From positions 1 through 31,829 of the forward strand of contig JBDRKP010000064.1 of assembly GCA_043813875.1 (NCBI GenBank): a DNA stretch of 31,829 bases. Direction: 5' to 3'. Source of the stretch: an archaeon. Lineage in GTDB: Archaea; EX4484-52; B79-G9. Shown here in pieces: positions 13 to 28,203 of the stretch (the first letter of the stretch is position 1; every line of letters begins with the position of its first letter). The notes below the pieces were generated by a model that saw only the letters and a list, made by a program, of their open reading frames with translations, was not told where the DNA came from and did no database searches. Position numbers and translations under genes: made by a program.

Positions 13-1047
13 ATGACCAAAAAGGAAAACAAAAAACTACCTGACAATCAGATAACTGTTTACCAGACATCCGATGGGCAGATCAATATAGAGGTAATGT
101 ACGCTAATGAAAATATATGGCTGCCCCAAAAAAGAATGGCCGAGTTATTCGGATGCAGCACAGACAACATCTCTTTGCACCTTAAAAACATATATGCAGA
201 AAAAGAACTTGACGAATCTGCAACTTCCGAGGATTTCTCGGCAGTTCAAATCGAAGGAAGCAGAAAGGTTACAAGGAAAATTACATACTATTCCCTTGAA
301 GCAATCATCGCTGTGGGATACAGGGTAAACTCAGAACGCGGCACGCAATTCAGGCAATGGGCAATTTCAGTCCTTCAGCAATATATCCACAAAGGATTTG
401 CAATAGACAGCGACAGATTCAAATATGGCACCCGTTTCAGCGCACGCTATTTTGACGACCTGCTCGAAGAAATCCGGGATATCCGTTCCAGTGAGCGGAT
501 GTTATATCAGAAAATTACAGATATTTACGCCACTTCAATTGACTATTCGCCAAAAGCAGAGGATACAAAACAATTCTTTGCGGCAGTCCAGAACAAGCTC
601 CACTTTGCCATTACCAAAAAGACCGCTGCCCAAATCATTGCCGCACGAGCCAAAAGCGAGAAGCCAAACATGGGATTGACATCATGGCGAAAAGCACCTG
701 CCGGTAAAATCCTGCCCGGTGACATTGCTGTAGCGAAAAACTATCTGGACAAACCCGAGCTTGATCATTTGAACCGTATAGTTACACTATATCTTGACTT
801 TGCTGAATTGCAGGCAGTTCGCAACTCACCAATGTATATGAAAGACTGGATTGAGAAGCTGAATGCATTCCTGAAGTTCAGTGAATACGAAATACTCACC
901 AATGCCGGGCAGATAAGTCATGAAGTTGCTCTGGCTCTTGCCAGCAAAGAATATGAGATATTCAAAAAAAATCAGGATAAAAATTACATATCAGATTTTG
1001 ACAAAGAGATACAGCGCATCAAAGGTAAAAAAGATGACAAAAATTAA
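13..1047 (+). CDS. RhuM-family (virulence RhuM-like) DNA-binding protein
   Basis: 344 aa with family-typical segments ENIWLPQKRMAELF, NISLHLKNIYAEKELDE, YYSLEAIIAVGYRVNSERGTQFRQWA, YFDDLLEEIRDIRSSER, VQNKLHFAIT; overlaps the hsdR start. Confidence 0.85.
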   Translation: MTKKENKKLPDNQITVYQTSDGQINIEVMYANENIWLPQKRMAELFGCSTDNISLHLKNIYAEKELDESATSEDFSAVQIEGSRKVTRKITYYSLEAIIAVGYRVNSERGTQFRQWAISVLQQYIHKGFAIDSDRFKYGTRFSARYFDDLLEEIRDIRSSERMLYQKITDIYATSIDYSPKAEDTKQFFAAVQNKLHFAITKKTAAQIIAARAKSEKPNMGLTSWRKAPAGKILPGDIAVAKNYLDKPELDHLNRIVTLYLDFAELQAVRNSPMYMKDWIEKLNAFLKFSEYEILTNAGQISHEVALALASKEYEIFKKNQDKNYISDFDKEIQRIKGKKDDKN

Positions 1048-4000
1048 AATCACAGAATCAGAAATAGAACGATTCGCCATCGAATTACTGGAAAAGTCCG
1101 GCTACCAATACATCTATGCGCCGGATATTGCCCCGGATAGTAAAACACCACAGCGGGCAGGATTCGAAGATGTTTTACTGCTGGAACATCTGAAAAAAGC
1201 AGTCAAGAGAATCAATCCCGGCATTCCGGCCGACGCCAGGGAAGATGCCATAAAACAGATACAGCGCCTCAATTCTCCAGAACTTATCGCCAACAATGAA
1301 TCATTTCACAAAATGCTCACCGAAGGCATAAAGGTAAGCTATCAAAAAGAAGGATCCGACAGGGGTGATCTGGTCTGGCTCCTCGATTTCAATAATCCTG
1401 AAAACAATGAGTTTATTGTTGCCAATCAATTTACCATCATTGAAAATAATGTGAACAAACGGCCCGATATCATTCTTTTTGTCAACGGTCTACCGCTCGT
1501 GGTCATCGAGCTGAAAAACCCTGCTGACGAGAACGCAACTGTAAAAAGCGCATTCAATCAGTTGCAGACCTACAAACAGGCAATCCCCGGGCTTTTCAAT
1601 TACAATGGCTTCCTCATCATTTCCGATGGCCTTGATACACGAGCAGGGTCGATATCACTTGGTTTCAGCCGCTTCATGGCATGGAAATCATCCGACGGCA
1701 AAACAGAGGCATCGCATTTAACCAGTCAACTGGAAATCCTGATCAATGGAATGCTCAATAAAAACACATTGTTAGATATGATCAGGCATTTTATAGTATT
1801 TGAAAAATCGAAAAAAGAAGACACCGAAACCGGCATAATCACCATCCAGACAGTCAAGAAAATAGCATATTATCATCAATATTATGCCGTAAACAAAGCT
1901 GTTGAATCAACTATTCGCGCTGCTGCAATCAATGACAACCCAATGCTGATTAAAGATGCACCCGAGAACTATGGATTGATGAATGTAGCGACACAGGCAA
2001 AAGGGGACAGGCGCGGCGGCGTTGTCTGGCATACACAGGGAAGCGGAAAGTCGCTTTCCATGGTATTTTATACCGGTAAGATTGTCCTTGCATTGGATAA
2101 CCCTACTATTGTGGTAATAACCGACCGCAACGATTTAGACGACCAGCTTTTTGACACATTTGCCGCTTCAAAGCAGCTTCTCAGACAGGATCCAGTGCAG
2201 GCAGAAAACAGGGAGCATTTGAAAGAACTGCTAAACGTCGCATCGGGTGGCGTGGTATTTACCACAATACAGAAATTCCAGCCCGAAGAAGGAAACGTTT
2301 ACCCTGAGCTATCAGACAGAAAAAACATCATTGTGATAGCTGACGAAGCCCACCGGACACAATACGGCTTCAGGGCAAAAACCATTGATGTCAAAGATGA
2401 ACATGGAAACGTAATCGGCAAAAAAATTGTTTACGGCTTTGCGAAATACACTCGCGACGCCCTGCCCAACGCAACTTATCTGGGTTTCACCGGTACGCCG
2501 ATAGAAAAAACAGACGTGAACACGCCTGCTGTTTTCGGCAATTATGTTGATGTTTACGACATATCCCAGGCTGTCGAAGACGGCGCCACAGTAAGAATCT
2601 ATTACGAGAGCAGACTGGCAAAAATCACACTCAGCAAGAACGGCAAAAAACTGCTCAAAGAACTGGACGAAGAACTGGAAAAAGAAGACCTTGCAGAAAC
2701 CCAAAAAGCCAAAGCGAAATGGACGCAATTTGAAGCTTTGATTGGCAGCGAAGAGCGGATAAAGCAGGTTGCATCGGACATTGTAACTCATTTCGGGCAA
2801 AGGCAGGAAGTGTCTGAAGGCAAGGGACTGATTGTTGCAATGTCAAGAAGGATTGCCGCCAATCTGTACGATGAAATAATAAAAATCAAGCCGCAATGGC
2901 ACAACGACGACCTCAAAAAGGGCGTTATCAAAGTTGTGATGACATCTGCATCTTCTGACGGTCCAAAGATTTCAAAGCATCATACCACAAAAGAACAGAG
3001 ACGAACTTTGGCAGAAAGAATGAAAGATCCGGAAGACGAATTAAAATTAGTTATCGTGCGAGATATGTGGCTTACTGGTTTCGATGGTCCGTGCCTGCAC
3101 ACGATGTATATAGATAAGCCCATGAAAGGCCATACCCTTATGCAGGCAATTGCACGGGTGAACAGAGTCTATAAAGACAAGCCAGGCGGATTAGTTGTTG
3201 ATTATCTTGGAATTGCGTCCGATTTGAAAGAAGCGTTATCATTTTATTCAGATAGCGGTGGGAAAGGTGATCCTGCTGTTCTTCAGGAAAAAGCAGTTCA
3301 GATGATGCATGAAAAATTAGAAATTGTTTCCCAGATGTTTCATGGTTTTTCCTATGATCATTACTTTACAGCAGACACATCAACAAAGCTATCAATAATA
3401 CTCGCTGCACAAGAGCATATACTTGGCCTTGAAAATGGCAAGAAACGTTATATTGATGAAGTGACAGCATTGTCAAGCGCATTTTCTATCGCCATTCCGC
3501 ACGAGCAGGCAATGGATGTGAAGGATACAGTTTCGTTCTATCAGGCGGTAAAGGCCCGGCTTGTAAAATTTGACAGCACTGGAACAGGCAAAACCAACGA
3601 CGAAATTGAAACCGCAATCAGGCAAGTTATCGATCAGGCACTTGTAACTGAAAAAGTGATAGACGTGTTTGATGCCGCAGGAATTAAAAAACCGGACATT
3701 TCCATATTATCAGAAGAATTTCTTTTAGAAGTCCAAAACATGGAACACAAAAATATCGCTCTGGAAGTTCTAAAAAAGTTGCTCAATGATGAAATTAAAG
3801 CCAGAGTAAAGAAGAATCTGGTTCAAAGTCGAACATTGATGGAAATGCTCGAAGATTCTATTCAGAAGTATCACAACAAGATCATTACAGCAGTAGAAGT
3901 AATAGATAAACTGATTGAACTTGGTAAAGAGATAAAGAGGATGGACAAAGAGCCGCATGAAATGGGTTTGTCCGATTTTGAATACGCTTTTTATACCGCT

Positions 4001-4258
4001 ATTGCGGATAATGATGGCGCCAGAGAACTGATGCAAAAAGAAACATTGCGGGAATTGGCTGTTGTTTTATTTGAAAAGGTGAAACAAAATGCATCGATCG
4101 ATTGGACAATAAAGGAAAGCGTCAGGGCAAAATTAAAAGTAATTGTAAAACGTACATTAAGACAATATGGTTATCCTCCTGATATGCAGGCACTTGCAAC
4201 AGAAACAGTGCTAAAGCAGGCGGAATTGATTGCAGATGAAATAACCCGTAGAGGATAG
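1034..4258 (+). CDS. hsdR: Type I restriction endonuclease subunit R
   Basis: PD-(D/E)xK nuclease motif RPDIILFVNGLPLVVIELK, Walker A HTQGSGKS, DEAH box (ADEAHR), GFTGTP, DMWLTGFD, QAIARVNR. Start taken as ATG 1034 (MTKIKITESEIE) rather than the ORF-track start at 920. Confidence 0.95.
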   Translation: MTKIKITESEIERFAIELLEKSGYQYIYAPDIAPDSKTPQRAGFEDVLLLEHLKKAVKRINPGIPADAREDAIKQIQRLNSPELIANNESFHKMLTEGIKVSYQKEGSDRGDLVWLLDFNNPENNEFIVANQFTIIENNVNKRPDIILFVNGLPLVVIELKNPADENATVKSAFNQLQTYKQAIPGLFNYNGFLIISDGLDTRAGSISLGFSRFMAWKSSDGKTEASHLTSQLEILINGMLNKNTLLDMIRHFIVFEKSKKEDTETGIITIQTVKKIAYYHQYYAVNKAVESTIRAAAINDNPMLIKDAPENYGLMNVATQAKGDRRGGVVWHTQGSGKSLSMVFYTGKIVLALDNPTIVVITDRNDLDDQLFDTFAASKQLLRQDPVQAENREHLKELLNVASGGVVFTTIQKFQPEEGNVYPELSDRKNIIVIADEAHRTQYGFRAKTIDVKDEHGNVIGKKIVYGFAKYTRDALPNATYLGFTGTPIEKTDVNTPAVFGNYVDVYDISQAVEDGATVRIYYESRLAKITLSKNGKKLLKELDEELEKEDLAETQKAKAKWTQFEALIGSEERIKQVASDIVTHFGQRQEVSEGKGLIVAMSRRIAANLYDEIIKIKPQWHNDDLKKGVIKVVMTSASSDGPKISKHHTTKEQRRTLAERMKDPEDELKLVIVRDMWLTGFDGPCLHTMYIDKPMKGHTLMQAIARVNRVYKDKPGGLVVDYLGIASDLKEALSFYSDSGGKGDPAVLQEKAVQMMHEKLEIVSQMFHGFSYDHYFTADTSTKLSIILAAQEHILGLENGKKRYIDEVTALSSAFSIAIPHEQAMDVKDTVSFYQAVKARLVKFDSTGTGKTNDEIETAIRQVIDQALVTEKVIDVFDAAGIKKPDISILSEEFLLEVQNMEHKNIALEVLKKLLNDEIKARVKKNLVQSRTLMEMLEDSIQKYHNKIITAVEVIDKLIELGKEIKRMDKEPHEMGLSDFEYAFYTAIADNDGARELMQKETLRELAVVLFEKVKQNASIDWTIKESVRAKLKVIVKRTLRQYGYPPDMQALATETVLKQAELIADEITRRG

Positions 4259-4568: not shown

Positions 4569-7544
4569 ATGGGTATATTCAAGGGAAGAATTCTGCGCGT
4601 CGACCTCACGAAAAAAAATATAAGCGAGGAATATGCCGCCCCCAAAGACATACTAAGATACATCGGCGGCCGTGGCCTTGCAGCAAAAATACTCATCGAC
4701 GAACTCGACCCGAAAACAGATCCTCTTTCTGAAAAGAACATGATAATTCTCATGGCAGGCCCCCTGACAGGCCTTGCCCCAGCCTCAGGAAGATGCTCAT
4801 TCACGTCAAAATCCCCGCTTACCGGCACCATATTCGACTCGAACGTCGGCGGCTCCCTGGGTTATGAATTAAGAAAGACAGGCTACGACGGCGTCATAAT
4901 CACAGGCAGATCAGACACGCCTCTCTACCTTGAGATAACAGACAACAAGGCCGAGCTCAAAGACGCCAAACATCTCTGGACAAAGACCACAACAGAAACC
5001 ACAGAGCTCCTGGCCAAAGACAAATTCAAGGTCGCATGCATCGGTCCGGCAGGAGAGAATCTCGTATTATACTCATCGATAATCATAGACAGAAGCCGCG
5101 CAGCCGGCCGTGGGGGTCTTGGCGCAGTGCTCGGCTCAAAGAAGCTCAAGGCAATCGCCCTCAAAGGCACGCAAAAGATAGAGCCCGCAAACGAGTTCGC
5201 ATTCAGCGAACAGAAAAAACGCTTCCTTGAGATAATAAGAGGCCATCCGGTGACAGGAGACTCGCTCGGTCGTTTCGGCACCCTCGTTCTCATGAACCCC
5301 GTAAACAAGCACGGGATACTCCCCATAAACAACTTCCAGAAAGGCTTCTATGACAACGTGGAAAACATATCCGGCGAGACCATGCAGAAATACCTCACAA
5401 AAAAGACAGGATGCGCCCTCTGCCCCATAATGTGCGGAAGAGACGCTAACGTCGAAGGCGTAAAGACCCACGGTCCTGAATACGAAAGCACCTGGGCGCT
5501 CACAGTTCAGTGCGGTCACTCCGACGCAAAGACACTCGCCATCGCAAACAACCTCTGCAATGAATTAGGCCTTGACACCATAACCACAGGCAGCACAATC
5601 GGCTTTGCCATGGAATGCTCAGATAAAGGCCTCATCAAAGAAAAAATAACCTTCGGCGACACGAAAATAATCCCGGAACTCATAGAAAAGATCGCATACA
5701 AAAAAGACATCGGCGCACTCCTTTCAGAAGGCACCAAACGCATGGGAAAAAAACTGGGCGCAACCGACTTCGCGATAAACGTCAAAGGCCTCGAAATACC
5801 GGCATACGACCCACGCGGCGTAAAAGGCCAGGCATTGTCATACATGACATCAAACAGGGGCGGCTGCCACTTAAGAGCATACATGATCCCGCAGGAAGTG
5901 CTCTCCTCACCAAGATACTTAGACAACCTTGAGCTTGAGGACAAGGCAAGAAAGGTCCGCGACATCGAGAACATATTCGCAGTCATGGACTCGCTTGTCA
6001 TGTGCAAATTCACAACGATCGCAGTATTCGAGACATTCGACTACGAGATAGACATCTACGCAAGGATGCTCACGACCGCGACCGGCATGTACTTCGACGA
6101 AAAGGAGCTAAAGAAAGCAGGCGAGCGCATCTGGAACCTGGAGCGCCTCTTCAACACGAGAGCCGGCTTCACAAAAGAAGATGACCGGCTGCCGAAACGA
6201 TTTGAAGAGCCGATGCCGGAAGGCCCCGCAGAAGGCGAGACCGCAAAGATGGACAGTCTTCTCAGTGAATACTACACTCTCCGCGGCTGGGACGCATCAG
6301 GCATCCCGGAAGAGAAAAAACTGACAGCACTCAGCATAGATTTTGAAGAATCATGGCCGAAAAAGATAGTCTCTCTCAATCACGAATCACTGGAAGATGC
6401 CATATCAGACGCCAAAAAGAACCTCAAAAGCGGCGACTGGATAGAAGTGGCGTCCCCGCTCGTAAAAAGCCAGGGCGTCAACGCGATAATAGCGCTCAGG
6501 GCACTCTACCCTTACAAGACCATAATCGCAGACTACAAGACAATGGACACAGGATACCTAGAAGTCGAGATAGCGGCCCAGGCAGGCGCAGACATAGTCA
6601 CCATCTCAAGCCATGCAGGCAACCATACGATAATCGATGCCATCGGCGCAGCAAAGAAATACGGCGCAAAGATAATGATAGACCTCTTCGACGACATCAC
6701 GCGCGCAAAAGAAGTCGAGAAGCTCGGCGTGGACTACATCCGTGTATTCAAAAACGACATAATCGAAAAGCTTTCAAAAGAGATGAAGATACCGGTCGCA
6801 TCATTCATAGCATCAAAGCATGCAAAGCTGGCAGTCGAATCCTTCATCGACAAGGAACCTAAGGCGACAAAAAGAACAAAGACACCCGAGTTAGAGGGCA
6901 TCTGGCCGAAGCTCCAGGTAGCGCTTGACTTAAGGAACCTGAAAGAGGCCCTGAAGCTTGCCCGCGGCGCAAAAGAAGGCGGCGCACACTGGCTCGAAGT
7001 AGGGACGCCGCTGGTGAAAAGCGCAGGCATGGACGCGGTAAGAGAGATAAGAAAAGAGCACCCTGATTGCACCATCGTGGCTGACTTGAAGACATTAAGG
7101 AACGGCGGAAAAGAGGTCGCAATAGCGGCGCGTGCAGGCGCAGACATAATCGGCATCTGCGGCGCATCAGAGAACAGCATAATAAAAGACGCGATAAGGG
7201 CGGCAAAAGATTATAACGTGAAGATAATGGCTGACCTGATAGCAATAAAAGATCCTGTAGCCCGCGCAAAAGAGCTTGAAGACATGGGCGCAGACTACAT
7301 AGAATTCCATATTTCAGTCGACGAGCAGATGCGAAGCGGCAACGCGAAGATTCCGTTCCCTCTGGTCGAAAGCGTAGCAAAAGCCATAACGATACCGATG
7401 GGCGTCGCAGGCGGCATGAGAGCAGACACAGCGCCGCTCGCGATAAAGTCCGGCGCAAAGATTGCGGTAGTCGGCGGCTCTATAACGCGCGCAGCAGACC
7501 CGAAAAAAGCTTCGATAGTTATCCTGAAGGCCATCGGCAGATGA
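4569..7544 (+). CDS. Aldehyde:ferredoxin oxidoreductase (W/Mo-pterin, 4Fe-4S) fused to two tandem 3-hexulose-6-phosphate synthase/OMPDC-like domains
   Basis: Residues ~1-590 are AOR family (GRILRVDLT, YIGGRGL, KSPLTG, CIGPAGEN, GRGGLGAVLGSKKLKAI, CALCPIMC, GPEYES, GLDTI, YDPRG, RGGCHLR, LVMCKF, YYTLRGWD). Residues ~596-760 and ~779-991 are HPS-like (WIEVASPLVKSQG..ADYKTMDTG; LQVALD..WLEVGTPLVKSAG..ADLKT..VAGG..VVGGSIT). Confidence 0.9.
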   Translation: MGIFKGRILRVDLTKKNISEEYAAPKDILRYIGGRGLAAKILIDELDPKTDPLSEKNMIILMAGPLTGLAPASGRCSFTSKSPLTGTIFDSNVGGSLGYELRKTGYDGVIITGRSDTPLYLEITDNKAELKDAKHLWTKTTTETTELLAKDKFKVACIGPAGENLVLYSSIIIDRSRAAGRGGLGAVLGSKKLKAIALKGTQKIEPANEFAFSEQKKRFLEIIRGHPVTGDSLGRFGTLVLMNPVNKHGILPINNFQKGFYDNVENISGETMQKYLTKKTGCALCPIMCGRDANVEGVKTHGPEYESTWALTVQCGHSDAKTLAIANNLCNELGLDTITTGSTIGFAMECSDKGLIKEKITFGDTKIIPELIEKIAYKKDIGALLSEGTKRMGKKLGATDFAINVKGLEIPAYDPRGVKGQALSYMTSNRGGCHLRAYMIPQEVLSSPRYLDNLELEDKARKVRDIENIFAVMDSLVMCKFTTIAVFETFDYEIDIYARMLTTATGMYFDEKELKKAGERIWNLERLFNTRAGFTKEDDRLPKRFEEPMPEGPAEGETAKMDSLLSEYYTLRGWDASGIPEEKKLTALSIDFEESWPKKIVSLNHESLEDAISDAKKNLKSGDWIEVASPLVKSQGVNAIIALRALYPYKTIIADYKTMDTGYLEVEIAAQAGADIVTISSHAGNHTIIDAIGAAKKYGAKIMIDLFDDITRAKEVEKLGVDYIRVFKNDIIEKLSKEMKIPVASFIASKHAKLAVESFIDKEPKATKRTKTPELEGIWPKLQVALDLRNLKEALKLARGAKEGGAHWLEVGTPLVKSAGMDAVREIRKEHPDCTIVADLKTLRNGGKEVAIAARAGADIIGICGASENSIIKDAIRAAKDYNVKIMADLIAIKDPVARAKELEDMGADYIEFHISVDEQMRSGNAKIPFPLVESVAKAITIPMGVAGGMRADTAPLAIKSGAKIAVVGGSITRAADPKKASIVILKAIGR

Positions 7545-23199: not shown

Positions 23200-24591
23200 T
23201 CAGATCCCCAGTCTCTTCTTCCAGTGATTGCACACAATCTCGGTCTTCTCGGCAGCTGCCCCGACATAGAGTTCAGGATTGAAAAGAATCTCTCGCTCGA
23301 TTTCGCTGAACTTCTGAAGATACGGCTCAAGCTCATCATCAATCTCCATGACATCCCTAAGGCCAGTCTCGTTTTTTTCAGCCTTAAGCGTGAGCTTGCG
23401 CACGAACTCATGCGCATCCGGATGCCCGTGGAACGCAAGAAGCATATAAAGCGGCTCGGCGGCAAACGATTCCTTGCTCATCTCAAAATTCATCTGAAGG
23501 TTCTCCTTATCGACCGCAAGTCTCCTCGACACTTTAGTCAGCCGCACCACAGACACATAAAAAGCAGCAAACAGCTGCGGTATGAACCTCTGGGAAGCGG
23601 AATTGGTGAGATCCCTCTGGTGCTCCGAGATCCCGTCAAGATAAGCAGTCACCATCGCCGGCATGAACGCCTTATACATGCTCTTCACATTCTCGAAATT
23701 GATGGGATTCCTCTTATGCGGCATAGTCGATGATCCCACCTGGTCAACTGAAAACTCTTCCTTCACCTCAGCGATTTCAGTCCTCTGCAGGTTCCTCATG
23801 TCATCAGAGAAATTAGCAAGCACAGAAAAGGCGGTAATCACAGAGTGCATCAGGTCAGTCATAGGTTCCGGCGGCACGATCTGCGTAGAATGAAGTGCAG
23901 GCGAAAGCCCAAGATTCTCAAGCAGCCTCTTTTCAAACTGCATCGGCTTTTGAAAAAATAGTGATGAAGCATTATAAGCGCCGACAGCCCCCGATGCCTT
24001 GCCGCGCAGGCTCTGCTTTGCGCTGTTTATCGCCTCGATCCTGTCCCCGAGCCGGTGGACATAAGACGCCATCGTGAACCCGAAAGTGATCGGCTCTGCA
24101 TGCTGCCCGTGCGTCCTTGCGACCTGGAGCGTATCCTTTTCCCGAAGGGCGATATCCATCCATGTCCTCTCAAGCTCGTTAAGCGCAGGCATCAGCACAT
24201 CCTCACAGAACTCCTTATACCTTAAGACATTGGCAGTATCGACGACATCATATGACGTCAGCGAGAAATGGACAAAGCGCCTCGATTTCTTGGCCACCTT
24301 CGTCCTTATGCAATTGGCAAGAGCCCTGATATCATGCTTTATCCTGTCCTCTTCATGATACACTTCCTTAGCAGTCACTTTCTCGCACGCCTTTGCTATG
24401 TCGTCTGCGATATCCTTTGGGCAGATGCCTTCCTCTGCAAGCGCCACTGCAAGCGCAGCCTCGACCTTCAGCTTGTACCTTATATACGCATTCTCCGAAA
24501 GATAGGGCTCAAGCTTCTCCTTGACGCTCTCATCTCTTCCGTAATACCTGTAATCGATAGGCGATATATTCTCGAACAGATCCATATTCAT
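23200..24591 (-). CDS. purB: Adenylosuccinate lyase
   Basis: ISPIDYRY, HDIRA, TSYDVVDTA, RTHGQHAEP, signature GSSTMPHKRNP, HQRDLTNSA; translationally coupled to purE (TGATG). Confidence 0.95.
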   Translation of the reverse strand: MNMDLFENISPIDYRYYGRDESVKEKLEPYLSENAYIRYKLKVEAALAVALAEEGICPKDIADDIAKACEKVTAKEVYHEEDRIKHDIRALANCIRTKVAKKSRRFVHFSLTSYDVVDTANVLRYKEFCEDVLMPALNELERTWMDIALREKDTLQVARTHGQHAEPITFGFTMASYVHRLGDRIEAINSAKQSLRGKASGAVGAYNASSLFFQKPMQFEKRLLENLGLSPALHSTQIVPPEPMTDLMHSVITAFSVLANFSDDMRNLQRTEIAEVKEEFSVDQVGSSTMPHKRNPINFENVKSMYKAFMPAMVTAYLDGISEHQRDLTNSASQRFIPQLFAAFYVSVVRLTKVSRRLAVDKENLQMNFEMSKESFAAEPLYMLLAFHGHPDAHEFVRKLTLKAEKNETGLRDVMEIDDELEPYLQKFSEIEREILFNPELYVGAAAEKTEIVCNHWKKRLGI

Positions 24592-25052
24592 CACAGCACC
24601 GTCTTTTTGATATTCTCTTTTGTTTTCCTTATATCTTCATCCACTTTCTTGGAAAGCTTCTCATCAGTGAGCGCAATAATCTTCACAGCCGCAAGCGCCG
24701 CATTTTCAGGGCCAAGGACCGTCATTGAAGGTGTCCCCGATGGCATACGAAGGCTTGAATGTATGTCGACAAGATAAGCCGCATTATCCTCGATTGGCGG
24801 GCACGCGATGACCGGCTTCACCGTATTTGCTGCGACGACCCCCGAAAGCCCGTTAGACCTGCCGGCGACAGTGATGAACACCAAATCCGCATACTTCTTC
24901 TCGCTTTCCTTGATCACATCGAGCACAAGTTCAGGCGTCTTATGCGCAGACGCGACCTTGAACTCATAGCGCATCCTGAACTCATCAAGCAGAGAACCTA
25001 TCTTCTTACAGAACGCCATATCCTTAACCGATCCCATCAGGATAACAATCAT
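24591..25052 (-). CDS. purE: N5-CAIR mutase / AIR carboxylase
   Basis: ILMGS.KD, VASAHKTPE, VAGRSNGLSG, PVIACPP, SSLRMPSG, PENAALAA; GGTGAT SD upstream. Confidence 0.93.
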   Translation of the reverse strand: MIVILMGSVKDMAFCKKIGSLLDEFRMRYEFKVASAHKTPELVLDVIKESEKKYADLVFITVAGRSNGLSGVVAANTVKPVIACPPIEDNAAYLVDIHSSLRMPSGTPSMTVLGPENAALAAVKIIALTDEKLSKKVDEDIRKTKENIKKTVL

Positions 25053-25415: not shown

Positions 25416-27095
25416 ATGACACCGCGCCAGAGGCAGATAAAAGATGCAGTCACAAGATTCACTGAACTTGCAAAATCCAATGAAAACGTAATCGAGATAG
25501 CGCAGTTCGGCTCGTCGATAACAGGGAAAAAGGTGCCAAAAGATTTTGACCTGATGGTCTTTGTAGACAACATCACATGCATCCCCCGCATAGCCCGGTG
25601 CGCAAGAAGCGTAACGTCAATATATCATGCCCACGACATCTTCGTATTCGGCAAAGACAGGCGCTACATGGGAAGGATATGCTCAAGGAAAAACTGCCCC
25701 GGAGACGCAGCAGATTGTTTCGCCCCCGGATGCGGGAAAACACCGCACCTCAAGCAAATTTCGGGCTTCACCTTCAGGGAAGAGGTGGCATTCAAAAAAA
25801 AGCCGCTCATCCTCTACAAAATCCCGGGCACAGGCATAACCGAAAGCTGGTATAATGAGGCAAAAAAATACATGCTCAAAAAGAGCACGATACTGAGAAA
25901 AGAATACTTCGGCGGCATAGCCTTCAACAGGGACAATGCAGCCACTATACAGGTCGACGGCGGGCTCTATGAAATTCTTGCCGGGCTCCATTCAAAAAAA
26001 AGCATAAAAGACATCATAGATGCATCGAAGAACAGCCGCGCCCCATCATGCATCGAGAAGCTGGAAAAACTCGGCTTCATCACAGACGCTACAGATCAAG
26101 AAGATATCCTGCCCTACACCCCCAACGAGACAATTGAAGGCTGCCTTTCTGCCCCCGAGGTAGTCCACCTGTCTGTAACAGGCAGATGCAACCTCGACTG
26201 TGAATTCTGCTACGCCCAAAAAAACGAAAAAGACATGACCACAAAAGAGATAACATCGCTCATAGACGAACTATCGGAAATGAAAGTATTCCAGGTTGCA
26301 ATAGGCGGCGGCGAGCCGCTCCTTAGGGATGACATCTATCGCATATTATCATACTGCAAGAAAAAAGGAATCGTAGCGAACATCACAACGAACGGCACCC
26401 TGCTTGAGGGCGGCGCCGTAAAAAAGCTCAAAAAAATAGCAGGCCAGGTGAACTTAAGCGTCAACGAATGCCTGAAAACACAGGATTGCAGGGACAGGAT
26501 ACTGATGCTGGCCTGTGCAGGCATAAGGACAGGAATAAACCTCATGGCATCCAAAAAAAACATAGGGACGCTTGAAAACACAATACAGGACCTCCTGAAA
26601 TACCCTGTAGAAAGCATCACTCTACTTAGGCCCAAGCCTGCAAAAGACGATGCATGGTATAATGAAAACAGGCTTGACAAAGACGACCTTGTGCGCTTAA
26701 AGTCAGCCATAACCACATCAAAACACCCCGGGAAAATCCGTGTGGACTGCTCACTTGTTTCCCTCATGCATGACGTATCGCCATCAGTTCTTGAATACAA
26801 AAGCATATTCGGCTGCGTTGGTGGCGTAAGATTCTGCACTATCCGGAACAACGGCGACGTCTACCCATGCTCATTTTTCGGCGAGAGACAATACCTTGCA
26901 GGAAACGTGCCTGAATCAGGATTCAAAAAAATCTGGAAAGAAGCGCAAATATTTAAAACATTCAGGACAATGAATAATAAAATAAAAGGCCGCTGCAGAA
27001 AATGCAGGATAAAAGACAACTGCAAGGGGTGCAGGCGGATAGCGCTCAAGGTAAACAACGACTTTTACTCAGAAGACATATGCCCGGGTTGCTAA
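25416..27095 (+). CDS. Nucleotidyltransferase-like domain fused to a radical SAM/SPASM enzyme with a putative PqqD/RRE-like linker
   Basis: N-terminal FGS..KDFDL (pol-beta-like GS..DxD) with a Cys cluster CSRKNC..DC..PGC; middle LRKEYFGGIAF..; radical SAM CNLDCEFC, IGGGEP, NITTNG; SPASM GCVGG..GDVYPC..CRKC..NCKGC..C. Confidence 0.85.
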   Translation: MTPRQRQIKDAVTRFTELAKSNENVIEIAQFGSSITGKKVPKDFDLMVFVDNITCIPRIARCARSVTSIYHAHDIFVFGKDRRYMGRICSRKNCPGDAADCFAPGCGKTPHLKQISGFTFREEVAFKKKPLILYKIPGTGITESWYNEAKKYMLKKSTILRKEYFGGIAFNRDNAATIQVDGGLYEILAGLHSKKSIKDIIDASKNSRAPSCIEKLEKLGFITDATDQEDILPYTPNETIEGCLSAPEVVHLSVTGRCNLDCEFCYAQKNEKDMTTKEITSLIDELSEMKVFQVAIGGGEPLLRDDIYRILSYCKKKGIVANITTNGTLLEGGAVKKLKKIAGQVNLSVNECLKTQDCRDRILMLACAGIRTGINLMASKKNIGTLENTIQDLLKYPVESITLLRPKPAKDDAWYNENRLDKDDLVRLKSAITTSKHPGKIRVDCSLVSLMHDVSPSVLEYKSIFGCVGGVRFCTIRNNGDVYPCSFFGERQYLAGNVPESGFKKIWKEAQIFKTFRTMNNKIKGRCRKCRIKDNCKGCRRIALKVNNDFYSEDICPGC

Positions 27096-27097
27096 AG

Positions 27098-27704
27098 ATG
27101 CAGATCAGAAGCATAAGACAGGGATTCAGCTGCGAGCACAGCTCAGTAAACTACGAGTTTGTCACAGAAAAAAAGATAACTGATGATATTAAGGAAATAT
27201 TAAAAAGAAGCCGCGAAGACTACAATATCAGTGCCAGTGCCAAAAAAATATCCATGCACCTCGATGGCGAAGACTACATCGATGACCAGTTGCAGGATGC
27301 ACTTCTACAAAAAATGCCGCTTCTCATATACGAGGACTACGACTGGTGGAACTTCATACTGATGTTTGATTATGACAGGGGCCTCTTTGATGCCCTGAAA
27401 AAATACGAATCTGAAGGCAAAAGCGAATACTATGTCTCAGTAAGCAGGGAAGGCCGGAGGATACAGTTGTGGATATGCGTGCATTTAGATTACGGGGAGT
27501 TTCATGACCTTGATGAAAGAGACACTTTTCGCGGCTTGCGAAACCTCTTTCTTGAGGCAAGGCGCAACATCCAGAACGGCGATTATGAGTGCATAAAGAT
27601 GTTCCATATCTACTGCAAAAACAGGGGGGGGCTATAACAGATACATTCCCTCATCAGAAATCGCAAAAAAGCTCAAGCCGCTTCTTGCGACAAATGTATT
27701 ATGA
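27098..27704 (+). pseudogene. Hypothetical protein (paralog A), apparently frameshifted at a G8 tract
   Basis: ATG 27098 lies 2 nt after the radical SAM stop. The frame ends at TAA 27637, just after G8 (27624-27631); removing one G extends it as YNRYIPSSEIAKKLKPLLATNVL* to 27704, matching the C-terminus of the paralog at 28214. Confidence 0.65.
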
Positions 27705-27708
27705 TGGT

Positions 27709-28203
27709 ATGATGGATTTTGATAAAGAAGAGATTCTGATCCTGCTGAAAAGCATCAAAATAATGGAAAATGGCGAGGCACTGCTGGGCATAGACATCGA
27801 GCGCGACAAAGTCAATTCCCTTATAAAAAAGCTTTCAAAAAGCGCCATTGAAACTGAGATAAAGGAAATAGACAATTCAATAGAATCACTCATAAAAGAA
27901 GCAGAAGAATACAGGAGCGGGCACAGTGAAGAATACGAAATACAGGACTTTGACGACGTCTTTGGCCCCTCATATCCTTACTCAGATACCATGAAGATAC
28001 TCAAAGAAGCCATAGAAAGCGGCAAATGCGTCGAGATAAACTATTACTCAGCAAACCAGGGCAAATTTACAAAAAGAAAAGTAAGGCCGGAAAGCATCGA
28101 GCGCGACGGCGGCGTTCCGTACCTGAATGCGTACTGCTTTTTGAGGAACGATAAGCGTGTCTTTAAGCTCGGGAGAATAAAAGAAATAAGAATCGTAGAC
28201 TGA
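27709..28203 (+). CDS. Stand-alone WYL-domain protein
   Basis: C-terminal LKEAIESGKCVEINYYS..TKRKVRP..PYLNAYCFLRNDKRVFKLGRI; no obvious HTH or WCX domain; start taken as ATG 27709. Confidence 0.85.
   Translation: MMDFDKEEILILLKSIKIMENGEALLGIDIERDKVNSLIKKLSKSAIETEIKEIDNSIESLIKEAEEYRSGHSEEYEIQDFDDVFGPSYPYSDTMKILKEAIESGKCVEINYYSANQGKFTKRKVRPESIERDGGVPYLNAYCFLRNDKRVFKLGRIKEIRIVD

Follow-up and report, generated by a model that had tools for sequence, protein, structure and literature searches.

Many archaea make pentoses by running the ribulose monophosphate (RuMP) pathway in reverse, and one molecule of formaldehyde is released per pentose. Methanogens use Fae for that formaldehyde; elsewhere its fate is usually left open or given to a free aldehyde oxidoreductase (AOR). 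The closest described fusion is the Fae-HPS protein of methanogens and Archaeoglobi (NCBIfam NF009833), in which hexulose-6-phosphate synthase (HPS) is joined to a consumer of its formaldehyde and which works in the reverse RuMP route of archaea without a pentose-phosphate pathway. Here, we analyze contig JBDRKP010000064.1 (assembly GCA_043813875.1; the whole stretch of 31,829 nucleotides is called the window below), from an archaeon of the GTDB lineage EX4484-52; B79-G9, in which one gene joins an AOR-family enzyme to two HPS-like barrels. As in Fae-HPS, the partner of HPS is N-terminal and would consume its formaldehyde, but Fae condenses formaldehyde with tetrahydromethanopterin, with no redox step or metal, whereas a pterin/[4Fe-4S] oxidoreductase takes its place here. 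By analogy, AOR-HPS might be regarded as the redox counterpart of Fae-HPS, a fusion that, according to a passage of PMC5241800, "might immediately capture formaldehyde."

We lean toward the view that the fusion couples the cleavage of hexulose-6-phosphate to the oxidation of formaldehyde, yielding formate and reduced ferredoxin; in this coupling, the substrate, direction, channelling, metal, and use of the formate are what we infer, while the analysis itself shows the architecture, the conserved residues, the folds, the gene content, and a predicted packing of one barrel on the other. A separate PHI would convert fructose-6-phosphate into hexulose-6-phosphate, the C-terminal HPS barrel would cleave the latter into ribulose-5-phosphate and formaldehyde, and the N-terminal tungsto- or molybdo-pterin/[4Fe-4S] AOR domain would oxidize formaldehyde to formate, passing two electrons to ferredoxin. 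This oxidation would both remove a toxic product and drive an otherwise unfavorable cleavage, and the formate could feed the folate-independent purine enzymes PurT-like and PurP. A formaldehyde sink of this kind had been proposed in the earlier note on this stretch, written from the sequence alone. Its architecture and logic are backed by the conservation of the fusion and by gene content (PHI, RpiB, PurP, and PurT-like), while the subtype of the AOR and the equality of the barrels had to be corrected.

HPS-PHI and Fae-HPS were given in that note as the known HPS fusions. Both exist, but HPS-MenG/RraA-like (NF005442; Mhun0647 of M. hungatei), treated in a section of PMC5241800, is a further one, of which an example is encoded in the same genome as AOR-HPS. 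Its partner domain, unlike the AOR, has no known formaldehyde link, and the same section gives the M. hungatei enzyme an HPS activity about 30-fold lower than that of Fae-HPS. The window protein scored 181 bits against NF009833 (cutoff of 274), with no Fae domain, and 275 bits against the HPS-PHI profile NF041755 (cutoff of 500), with no SIS domain, and is a member of neither family. No description of an AOR-HPS fusion was found in literature searches (subscription papers and supplements lay outside their scope), which agrees with the earlier note, where the architecture was not recognized as described; fusion sequences are already public under generic names. The nearest published idea, going by portions of PMC8065059 and PMC11291895, is that of a free AOR or AFOR oxidizing formaldehyde beside RuMP enzymes, and papers on Brockarchaeota and Atabeyarchaeia, in the passages concerned, give reverse-RuMP formaldehyde to a free AOR by guesswork.

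An AOR-proper domain at the N terminus

The open reading frame (ORF) list and the translation of the window confirmed that the gene is a single uninterrupted ORF of 991 aa, as first described, and all the AOR motifs quoted at that time are in the translation (GCALCPIMCGR at residues 281 to 291, PEYES at 303 to 307, AYDPRG at 412 to 417, NRGGCH at 429 to 434, and MCKF at 478 to 481). An AlphaFold2 model of the whole chain had a mean predicted local distance difference test (pLDDT) value of 93.9 and a predicted template modeling (pTM) score of 0.87.

Residues 1 to 590 make up the AOR-family part. C282, C285, C289, and C479 align to the four [4Fe-4S] cysteines of 1AOR, and E306 and H434 align to its active-site Glu and His; we take the equivalents in the P. 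furiosus enzyme to be C288, C291, C295, C494, E313, and H448, respectively. These six columns are invariant in a 101-sequence alignment. The best bit scores against solved relatives were found for 9G7J (519), 9MQX (513), and 1AOR (511), followed by FOR 1B25 (356) and WOR5 (216), and Foldseek gave target template modeling (TM) scores for the model of 0.95 with 9MQX, 0.94 to 0.95 with 9G7J, 0.94 with 1AOR, and 0.91 with 1B25. Given the residue alignment, the bit scores, and the fold match, we class this part as a complete AOR-family member of the AOR-proper type. Membership in the FOR subfamily was rejected (356 bits to 1B25 against 511 to 519 bits to the three AORs). The window protein resembles the P. 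furiosus AOR 1AOR and the bacterial 9G7J and 9MQX over about 590 residues (42 to 43% identity), with all cofactor and catalytic residues aligned. These relatives, however, act alone or within larger electron-transfer complexes, and no sugar-phosphate barrel is attached to any of them.

Fused AORs also differ from 1AOR-type enzymes in a short segment (residues 480 to 493; window positions 6006 to 6047) with Lys480 directly after the fourth Fe-S cysteine, a 6-residue insert near residues 485 to 490 that includes F487 and T489, and E493. Y508, E513, G230, and K247 are likewise specific to fused AORs, and none of these marks was present in 16 unfused relatives. They may mark where the barrels dock or reflect an altered substrate tunnel.

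Distribution of the fusion

A search covering 5.8 billion proteins, with 8,000 candidates scored, provided the counts given here, which are taken from the best 120 matches. Ten of these have the two-barrel form (988 to 1,014 aa) in the same order of AOR, barrel, and barrel; besides that of the window protein, nine other clusters at 90% identity hold the three-part protein, with 53 to 82% identity to it. A further 75 are AORs with one barrel (800 to 860 aa), and the rest are 26 unfused AORs (575 to 625 aa) and 9 partial sequences. The few source names attached to the one-barrel form point to metagenome-assembled genomes (MAGs) of Asgard, Thermoproteota-type, and Thermoplasmata archaea, and include Promethearchaeota, Hodarchaeales, Heimdallarchaeota, Thorarchaeota, Methanomethylicaceae, Nezhaarchaeales, Thermoprotei, and Thermoplasmata. 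AOR-HPS with one barrel is thus widespread in archaeal MAGs, and the architecture is neither rare nor confined to this genome. For the two-barrel form, 7 MAG contigs were found, under the titles Candidatus Nanohalarchaeota, Aenigmatarchaeota, or uncultured archaeon. Within the phylum of the window, 13 of 42 genomes carry it, short-contig fragments counted: all eight genomes of genus g1, to which the window's genome belongs, all four of g3, and one of four of g6.

One alternative is that the ORF is an artefact, produced by assembly chimerism or by read-through of separate genes, or that barrel 1 is left over from a duplication, decaying and without a function of its own. Reads from public runs did nothing to dispel the first suspicion: the best run contained 0.17 of the sampled words, with no RNA run, and four runs aligned at 80% likeness gave short pieces and no contig across 6300 to 6360 or 6850 to 6910, both results being uninformative. 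Nevertheless, the same stop-free three-part ORF is present in independent assemblies, on which ground an assembly chimera was rejected, and the recurrence of the same order in the nine other clusters, the 7 MAG contigs, and the 13 phylum genomes indicates that the architecture is real. Taken together with the evidence on barrel 1 below, we find this explanation scarcely credible.

Two HPS-like barrels with complementary losses

The second barrel passes the equivalog-domain cutoff of TIGR03128 (RuMP_HxlA) in NCBIfam (281.6 bits against 200; residues 782 to 986) and matches the M. gastri HPS 3AJX with a Foldseek TM score of 0.94. Like known HPS enzymes (3AJX, the HPS-PHI 9LJ9, and TIGR03128), it has the catalytic residues D787, E810, D839, K841, and H914 and both Gly-rich phosphate loops. 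The corresponding beta-1 Asp, beta-2 Glu, D-x-K, beta-6 His, and Gly-rich loops are kept in barrel 2 of all ten two-barrel proteins. The last Asp of D-x-K-x-x-D is kept in none of them (Arg in three, Ser in four, and Cys, Ala, and Lys in one each), being R844 in the window protein. In the one-barrel fusions, the beta-1 Asp, the beta-2 Glu, the whole D-x-K-x-x-D, and the beta-6 His are each present in 75 of 75 sequences, and both Gly-rich phosphate loops are kept.

Barrel 1 is a different matter. Pfam OMPdecase matched two stretches of the protein (164 bits; best at 780 to 981), and NCBIfam gave a second, partial HPS/KGPDC-like stretch at about 597 to 721, barrel 1 alone being a partial match, with residues 597 to 707 matching KGPDC 4 to 114. 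Modelled at a pLDDT of >90, it has eight strands and six helices by DSSP, without the phosphate-binding loops and the last two helices. D655-x-K657-x-x-D660 is kept, while N606 replaces the beta-1 Asp. Across the two-barrel proteins, D-x-K-x-M-D-T-G is found in 10 of 10 and the beta-1 Asp in 0 of 10, and the beta-6 His is not reliable. Of the two "HPS-like TIM barrels" in the earlier description, therefore, barrel 2 stands as a complete HPS, but barrel 1 is truncated and without HPS catalytic residues.

In the OMPDC/KGPDC/HPS suprafamily, the last Asp of D-x-K-x-x-D reaches the active site of the partner barrel across the dimer interface, and the HPS enzymes known so far pair two identical barrels, each lending its partner an Asp. 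Unlike in these dimers, the trans Asp of the two-barrel form is absent from the active barrel and retained only on a dead, truncated sister barrel of the same chain. Because the trans-acting Asp comes from the dimer partner, the losses in the two barrels are complementary, a pattern seen in 10 of 10 two-barrel and 0 of 75 one-barrel proteins. Part of the residue roles used here follows a section of PMC10176493 (Mg-enediolate/His mechanism), the others being general background.

When the complex of barrel 2 and barrel 1 was predicted, three runs gave a score of 0.92, the best control having 0.15. Among solved complexes, 58 of 80 attained this mark, as did 2 of 110 mismatched pairs; since HPS, KGPDC, and OMPDC dimers have been solved, such a pass may stem from family likeness and is no proof, which has to be held against our interpretation. 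At least 92% of contacts agreed between runs, with a partner pLDDT of 92. The predicted interface is pseudo-two-fold (813 to 822 against 628 to 638 and 840 to 845 against 656 to 665) and involves D787 and H914 on the side of barrel 2 and the D660 loop on the side of barrel 1. Going by these models, the two barrels probably form a one-chain pseudo-dimer, packed like an HPS dimer and with a single active site. Barrel 1 would be the duplicated barrel that lost its own active site and kept the loop with the trans-acting Asp, and barrel 2 would have lost the trans Asp and kept all else; such complementary roles would leave one composite HPS site per AOR on the chain.

That barrel 1 is a roleless remnant would suit its long branch in the barrel tree (below). 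Several observations argue otherwise: its D-x-K-x-M-D-T-G persists in all ten proteins down to 53% overall identity, it is modelled with high confidence and predicted to pack on barrel 2, and the same pattern occurs in a free-standing protein. The latter came from a search of 1.84 billion representatives with the two barrels as query, in which the module also turned up without an AOR. P0146 is a two-barrel HPS of 353 aa, with the same length in nine of nine cluster members and on contigs of up to 152 kb; P0144 (393 aa) is the single member of its cluster and possibly a fragment. In both, barrel 1 keeps D-x-K-x-M-D-T-G and barrel 2 has Glu or Ser at the trans-Asp position.

Multi-barrel proteins of another kind were also observed. 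In P0145 (968 aa) and a 759-aa protein of genome G021, two or three HPS-like barrels are combined with SIS (PHI-type) domains, and these barrels again differ by eye in the catalytic motifs kept. The gene of the 759-aa protein (L015 8150-10429, reverse strand) lies 4.4 kb from the AOR-HPS gene of G021.

Origin of the fusion

A FastTree phylogeny of the AOR domain was built from 101 rows, comprising the 10 two-barrel and 75 one-barrel proteins and 16 of the 26 unfused AORs, with the 9 partial sequences left out. The 85 fused AORs are separated from the 16 unfused ones by a branch with a support of 100. Nested among 7 one-barrel proteins (support of 100), the 10 two-barrel proteins make up a single group (support of 91). 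In a quick IQ-TREE phylogeny of the barrels, all first barrels form one group (support of 100) and all second barrels another (support of 96), both falling within the set of the nearest one-barrel fusions. The stem of barrel 1 is long (1.04 changes per column). Both barrels open with W-P-K, indicating that the duplicated unit was the whole barrel. These trees fit a single origin of the fusion, kept under selection, and the simplest history suggested by the sequences would be one fusion followed by one internal duplication and subfunctionalisation.

Gene content and direction of the reaction

The window's genome (1.64 Mb, 91.5% complete) encodes PHI as a separate gene on contig C69 (192 bits against a cutoff of 160), as well as RpiB. 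Neither Fae nor Transketolase_N was found in it, in accordance with the absences foreseen in the earlier note, and transaldolase and RpiA were not found either. Of the 42 phylum genomes, 17 have PHI, among them 12 of the 13 with the fusion; Transketolase_N was found in none and Fae in one, which is not a fusion genome. Because kin are not independent, these co-occurrence counts are descriptive only, which tempers what they can lend to the proposed coupling. The sole Fae of the phylum is part of a 403-aa Fae-HPS (G018:C16; L014 442-1650), while genome G021 of the same genus has AOR with a two-barrel HPS (G021:C28; L015 691-3768). In this genus, HPS is therefore fused to one or the other formaldehyde consumer, which, at the level of gene content, looks like a natural swap of the partner.

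Possible takers of formate were also identified. PurP-family genes occur in two copies in all eight genomes of the genus of the window, together with a full-length PurT-like gene in the window's genome (439 bits, under the equivalog cutoff of 502), and FTHFS (formate-tetrahydrofolate ligase) was found in none of the eight, so that free formate would have takers. The window itself contains purB (adenylosuccinate lyase) and purE (AIR carboxylase) at 23200-25052 on the reverse strand, 16 kb downstream of the fusion gene and unlinked to it, which indicates that the organism makes its own purines.

The opposite direction also has to be weighed. The AOR could reduce formate with reduced ferredoxin and the HPS condense the formaldehyde with ribulose-5-phosphate, amounting to a ferredoxin-driven assimilation of formate into hexose phosphate. 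Domain order and residues fit either direction, acids are reduced in acetogens by AOR-family enzymes, which are reversible, HPS favors condensation and would pull an unfavorable reduction, and the fusion would hold free formaldehyde low. Even so, most ferredoxins are less negative than the formate/formaldehyde couple, and a cyclic RuMP pathway needs regeneration of ribulose-5-phosphate, for which neither Transketolase_N (in the 42 phylum genomes) nor transaldolase (in the organism's own genome) was found. In addition, the genome has consumers of formate (PurP and PurT-like) and no evident source of it. We consider net formate assimilation very unlikely.

Cofactor supply gave a mixed picture. 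Among the pterin synthesis genes looked for in the window's genome, MoaC and two MoeA genes are clustered on contig C4, but MoaE was not found. The tungsten transport expected beside such an enzyme did not appear: WtpA was found in none of the eight genomes of the genus, and neither SBP_bac_11 nor PBP_like_2 was found in the window's genome, although the missing W/Mo-binding protein and MoaE are soft absences, given the 91.5% completeness of the genome.

The failure to find a tungstate- or molybdate-binding protein is one of several observations that weigh against the coupling of HPS to formaldehyde oxidation. Broad-range AORs are closer to the AOR domain than FOR is (511 against 356 bits), so that formaldehyde is not implied by its subfamily. 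A second HPS, the HPS-MenG/RraA-like (aldolase-type) fusion mentioned above, is encoded in the genome (G000:C39:814-2142 of L002, reverse strand; 442 aa; NF005442 at 562 bits against a cutoff of 593); its HPS catalytic residues are intact, and the HPS fused to the AOR need not be the biosynthetic one. The three genomes of genus g13 have an HPS adjoining PHI and neither Fae nor a detectable AOR, which means that a fused sink is not obligatory. Finally, no conserved neighborhood with PHI, RpiB, or ferredoxin was seen in the three loci examined; the neighbors of the fusion gene differ between the window and the two related loci and give no operon clue.

Some of these facts would suit another explanation, namely, that the AOR acts on a different aldehyde, as a general detoxifier or in the breakdown of amino acids or sugars, with the HPS as a parallel scavenger, a scaffold, or a regulatory module, the two steps being non-consecutive. 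The AOR domain is closest to AORs of broad specificity; since no second AOR-proper gene was found in the genome, where the one other family member found is GAPOR-like, it may have to serve general needs; and the second HPS is not fused to AOR. On the other hand, fusions usually join consecutive steps, and this one has persisted in 85 diverged proteins, all on the same side of a well-supported branch. The HPS catalytic residues, kept in 75 of 75 one-barrel and 10 of 10 two-barrel proteins, argue for a working HPS tied to the AOR, and in a genome of the same genus it is Fae-HPS that takes the place of AOR-HPS. We regard an unrelated aldehyde as a rather unlikely substrate and retain formaldehyde released by HPS as the favored one.

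A further HPS-like frame of about 217 aa, with one or two in-frame TAA/TAG stops, was observed in some genomes of the genus of the window (G006:C104, G007:C62, and G001:C20). These interrupted frames are possible pseudogenes of a third HPS copy.

Features of the locus

The coordinates of the fusion gene and its parts are collected in Table 1. Upstream (window positions 13 to 4258), a RhuM-family gene overlaps the start of a gene for a 1,112-aa type I restriction enzyme R subunit, and a 310-bp gap separates these from the fusion gene. Polysaccharide and glycosyltransferase genes lie downstream. At 25416 to 28200, the window has a gene for a radical SAM/SPASM protein (559 aa) followed by one for a WYL-domain protein and several ORFs without a Pfam match.

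Table 1. Parts of the AOR-HPS gene, in window coordinates
Feature	Residues	Position	Strand	Basis or remark
Whole ORF: AOR, degenerate barrel, and HPS		4569..7544	+	991 aa plus stop
AFOR_N	6-201	4584..5171	+	Pfam PF02730, 257 bits (cutoff of 29.8)
AFOR_C, domains 2 and 3, with E306, H434, and C479	217-590	5217..6338	+	Pfam PF01314, 454 bits (cutoff of 27)
C282-x2-C285-x3-C289, three of the four [4Fe-4S] ligands		5412..5435	+	Aligned to CxxCxxxC of 1AOR
Barrel 1, truncated, catalytically degenerate, HPS-like	596-775	6354..6893	+	Profile, alignment, and DSSP
DYKTMD loop of barrel 1		6531..6548	+	Kept in 10/10 two-barrel proteins; residues 656-657 and 659-665 in the predicted interface
Inter-barrel linker, Lys/Thr/Pro-rich	761-779	6849..6905	+	pLDDT of 71-76, lowest in that part of the model; variable in the alignment
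Barrel 2, complete HPS barrel	780-989	6906..7535	+	TIGR03128, Foldseek, and site table
DLKTLR of barrel 2, with Arg844 at the position of the trans-acting Asp		7083..7100	+	Barrel alignment

Implications

At its broadest, AOR-HPS could be conceived as a general and hitherto unrecognized way in which anaerobic archaea other than methanogens (Asgard, TACK-type, Thermoplasmata, and DPANN-like) deal with the formaldehyde of pentose synthesis. It would be a closed, reversible module between formate/formaldehyde and sugar phosphates that could also fix formate with reduced ferredoxin, with the two-barrel form, as an evolved heterodimer on one chain, setting one HPS site per AOR, aimed at the substrate tunnel of the AOR. 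We think it quite unlikely that this wider picture holds.

The two-barrel form would offer a clear example from nature of how complementary loss converts a homodimeric TIM-barrel enzyme into a heterodimer on a single chain. The conserved fusion provides direct genomic evidence linking AOR to the formaldehyde of the reverse RuMP pathway, and it would assign a physiological substrate to one clade within the AOR family, which is poorly understood. For the organism, it suggests a carbon-saving loop in which ribose synthesis would yield formate and the formate, in turn, would supply C2 and C8 of the purines.

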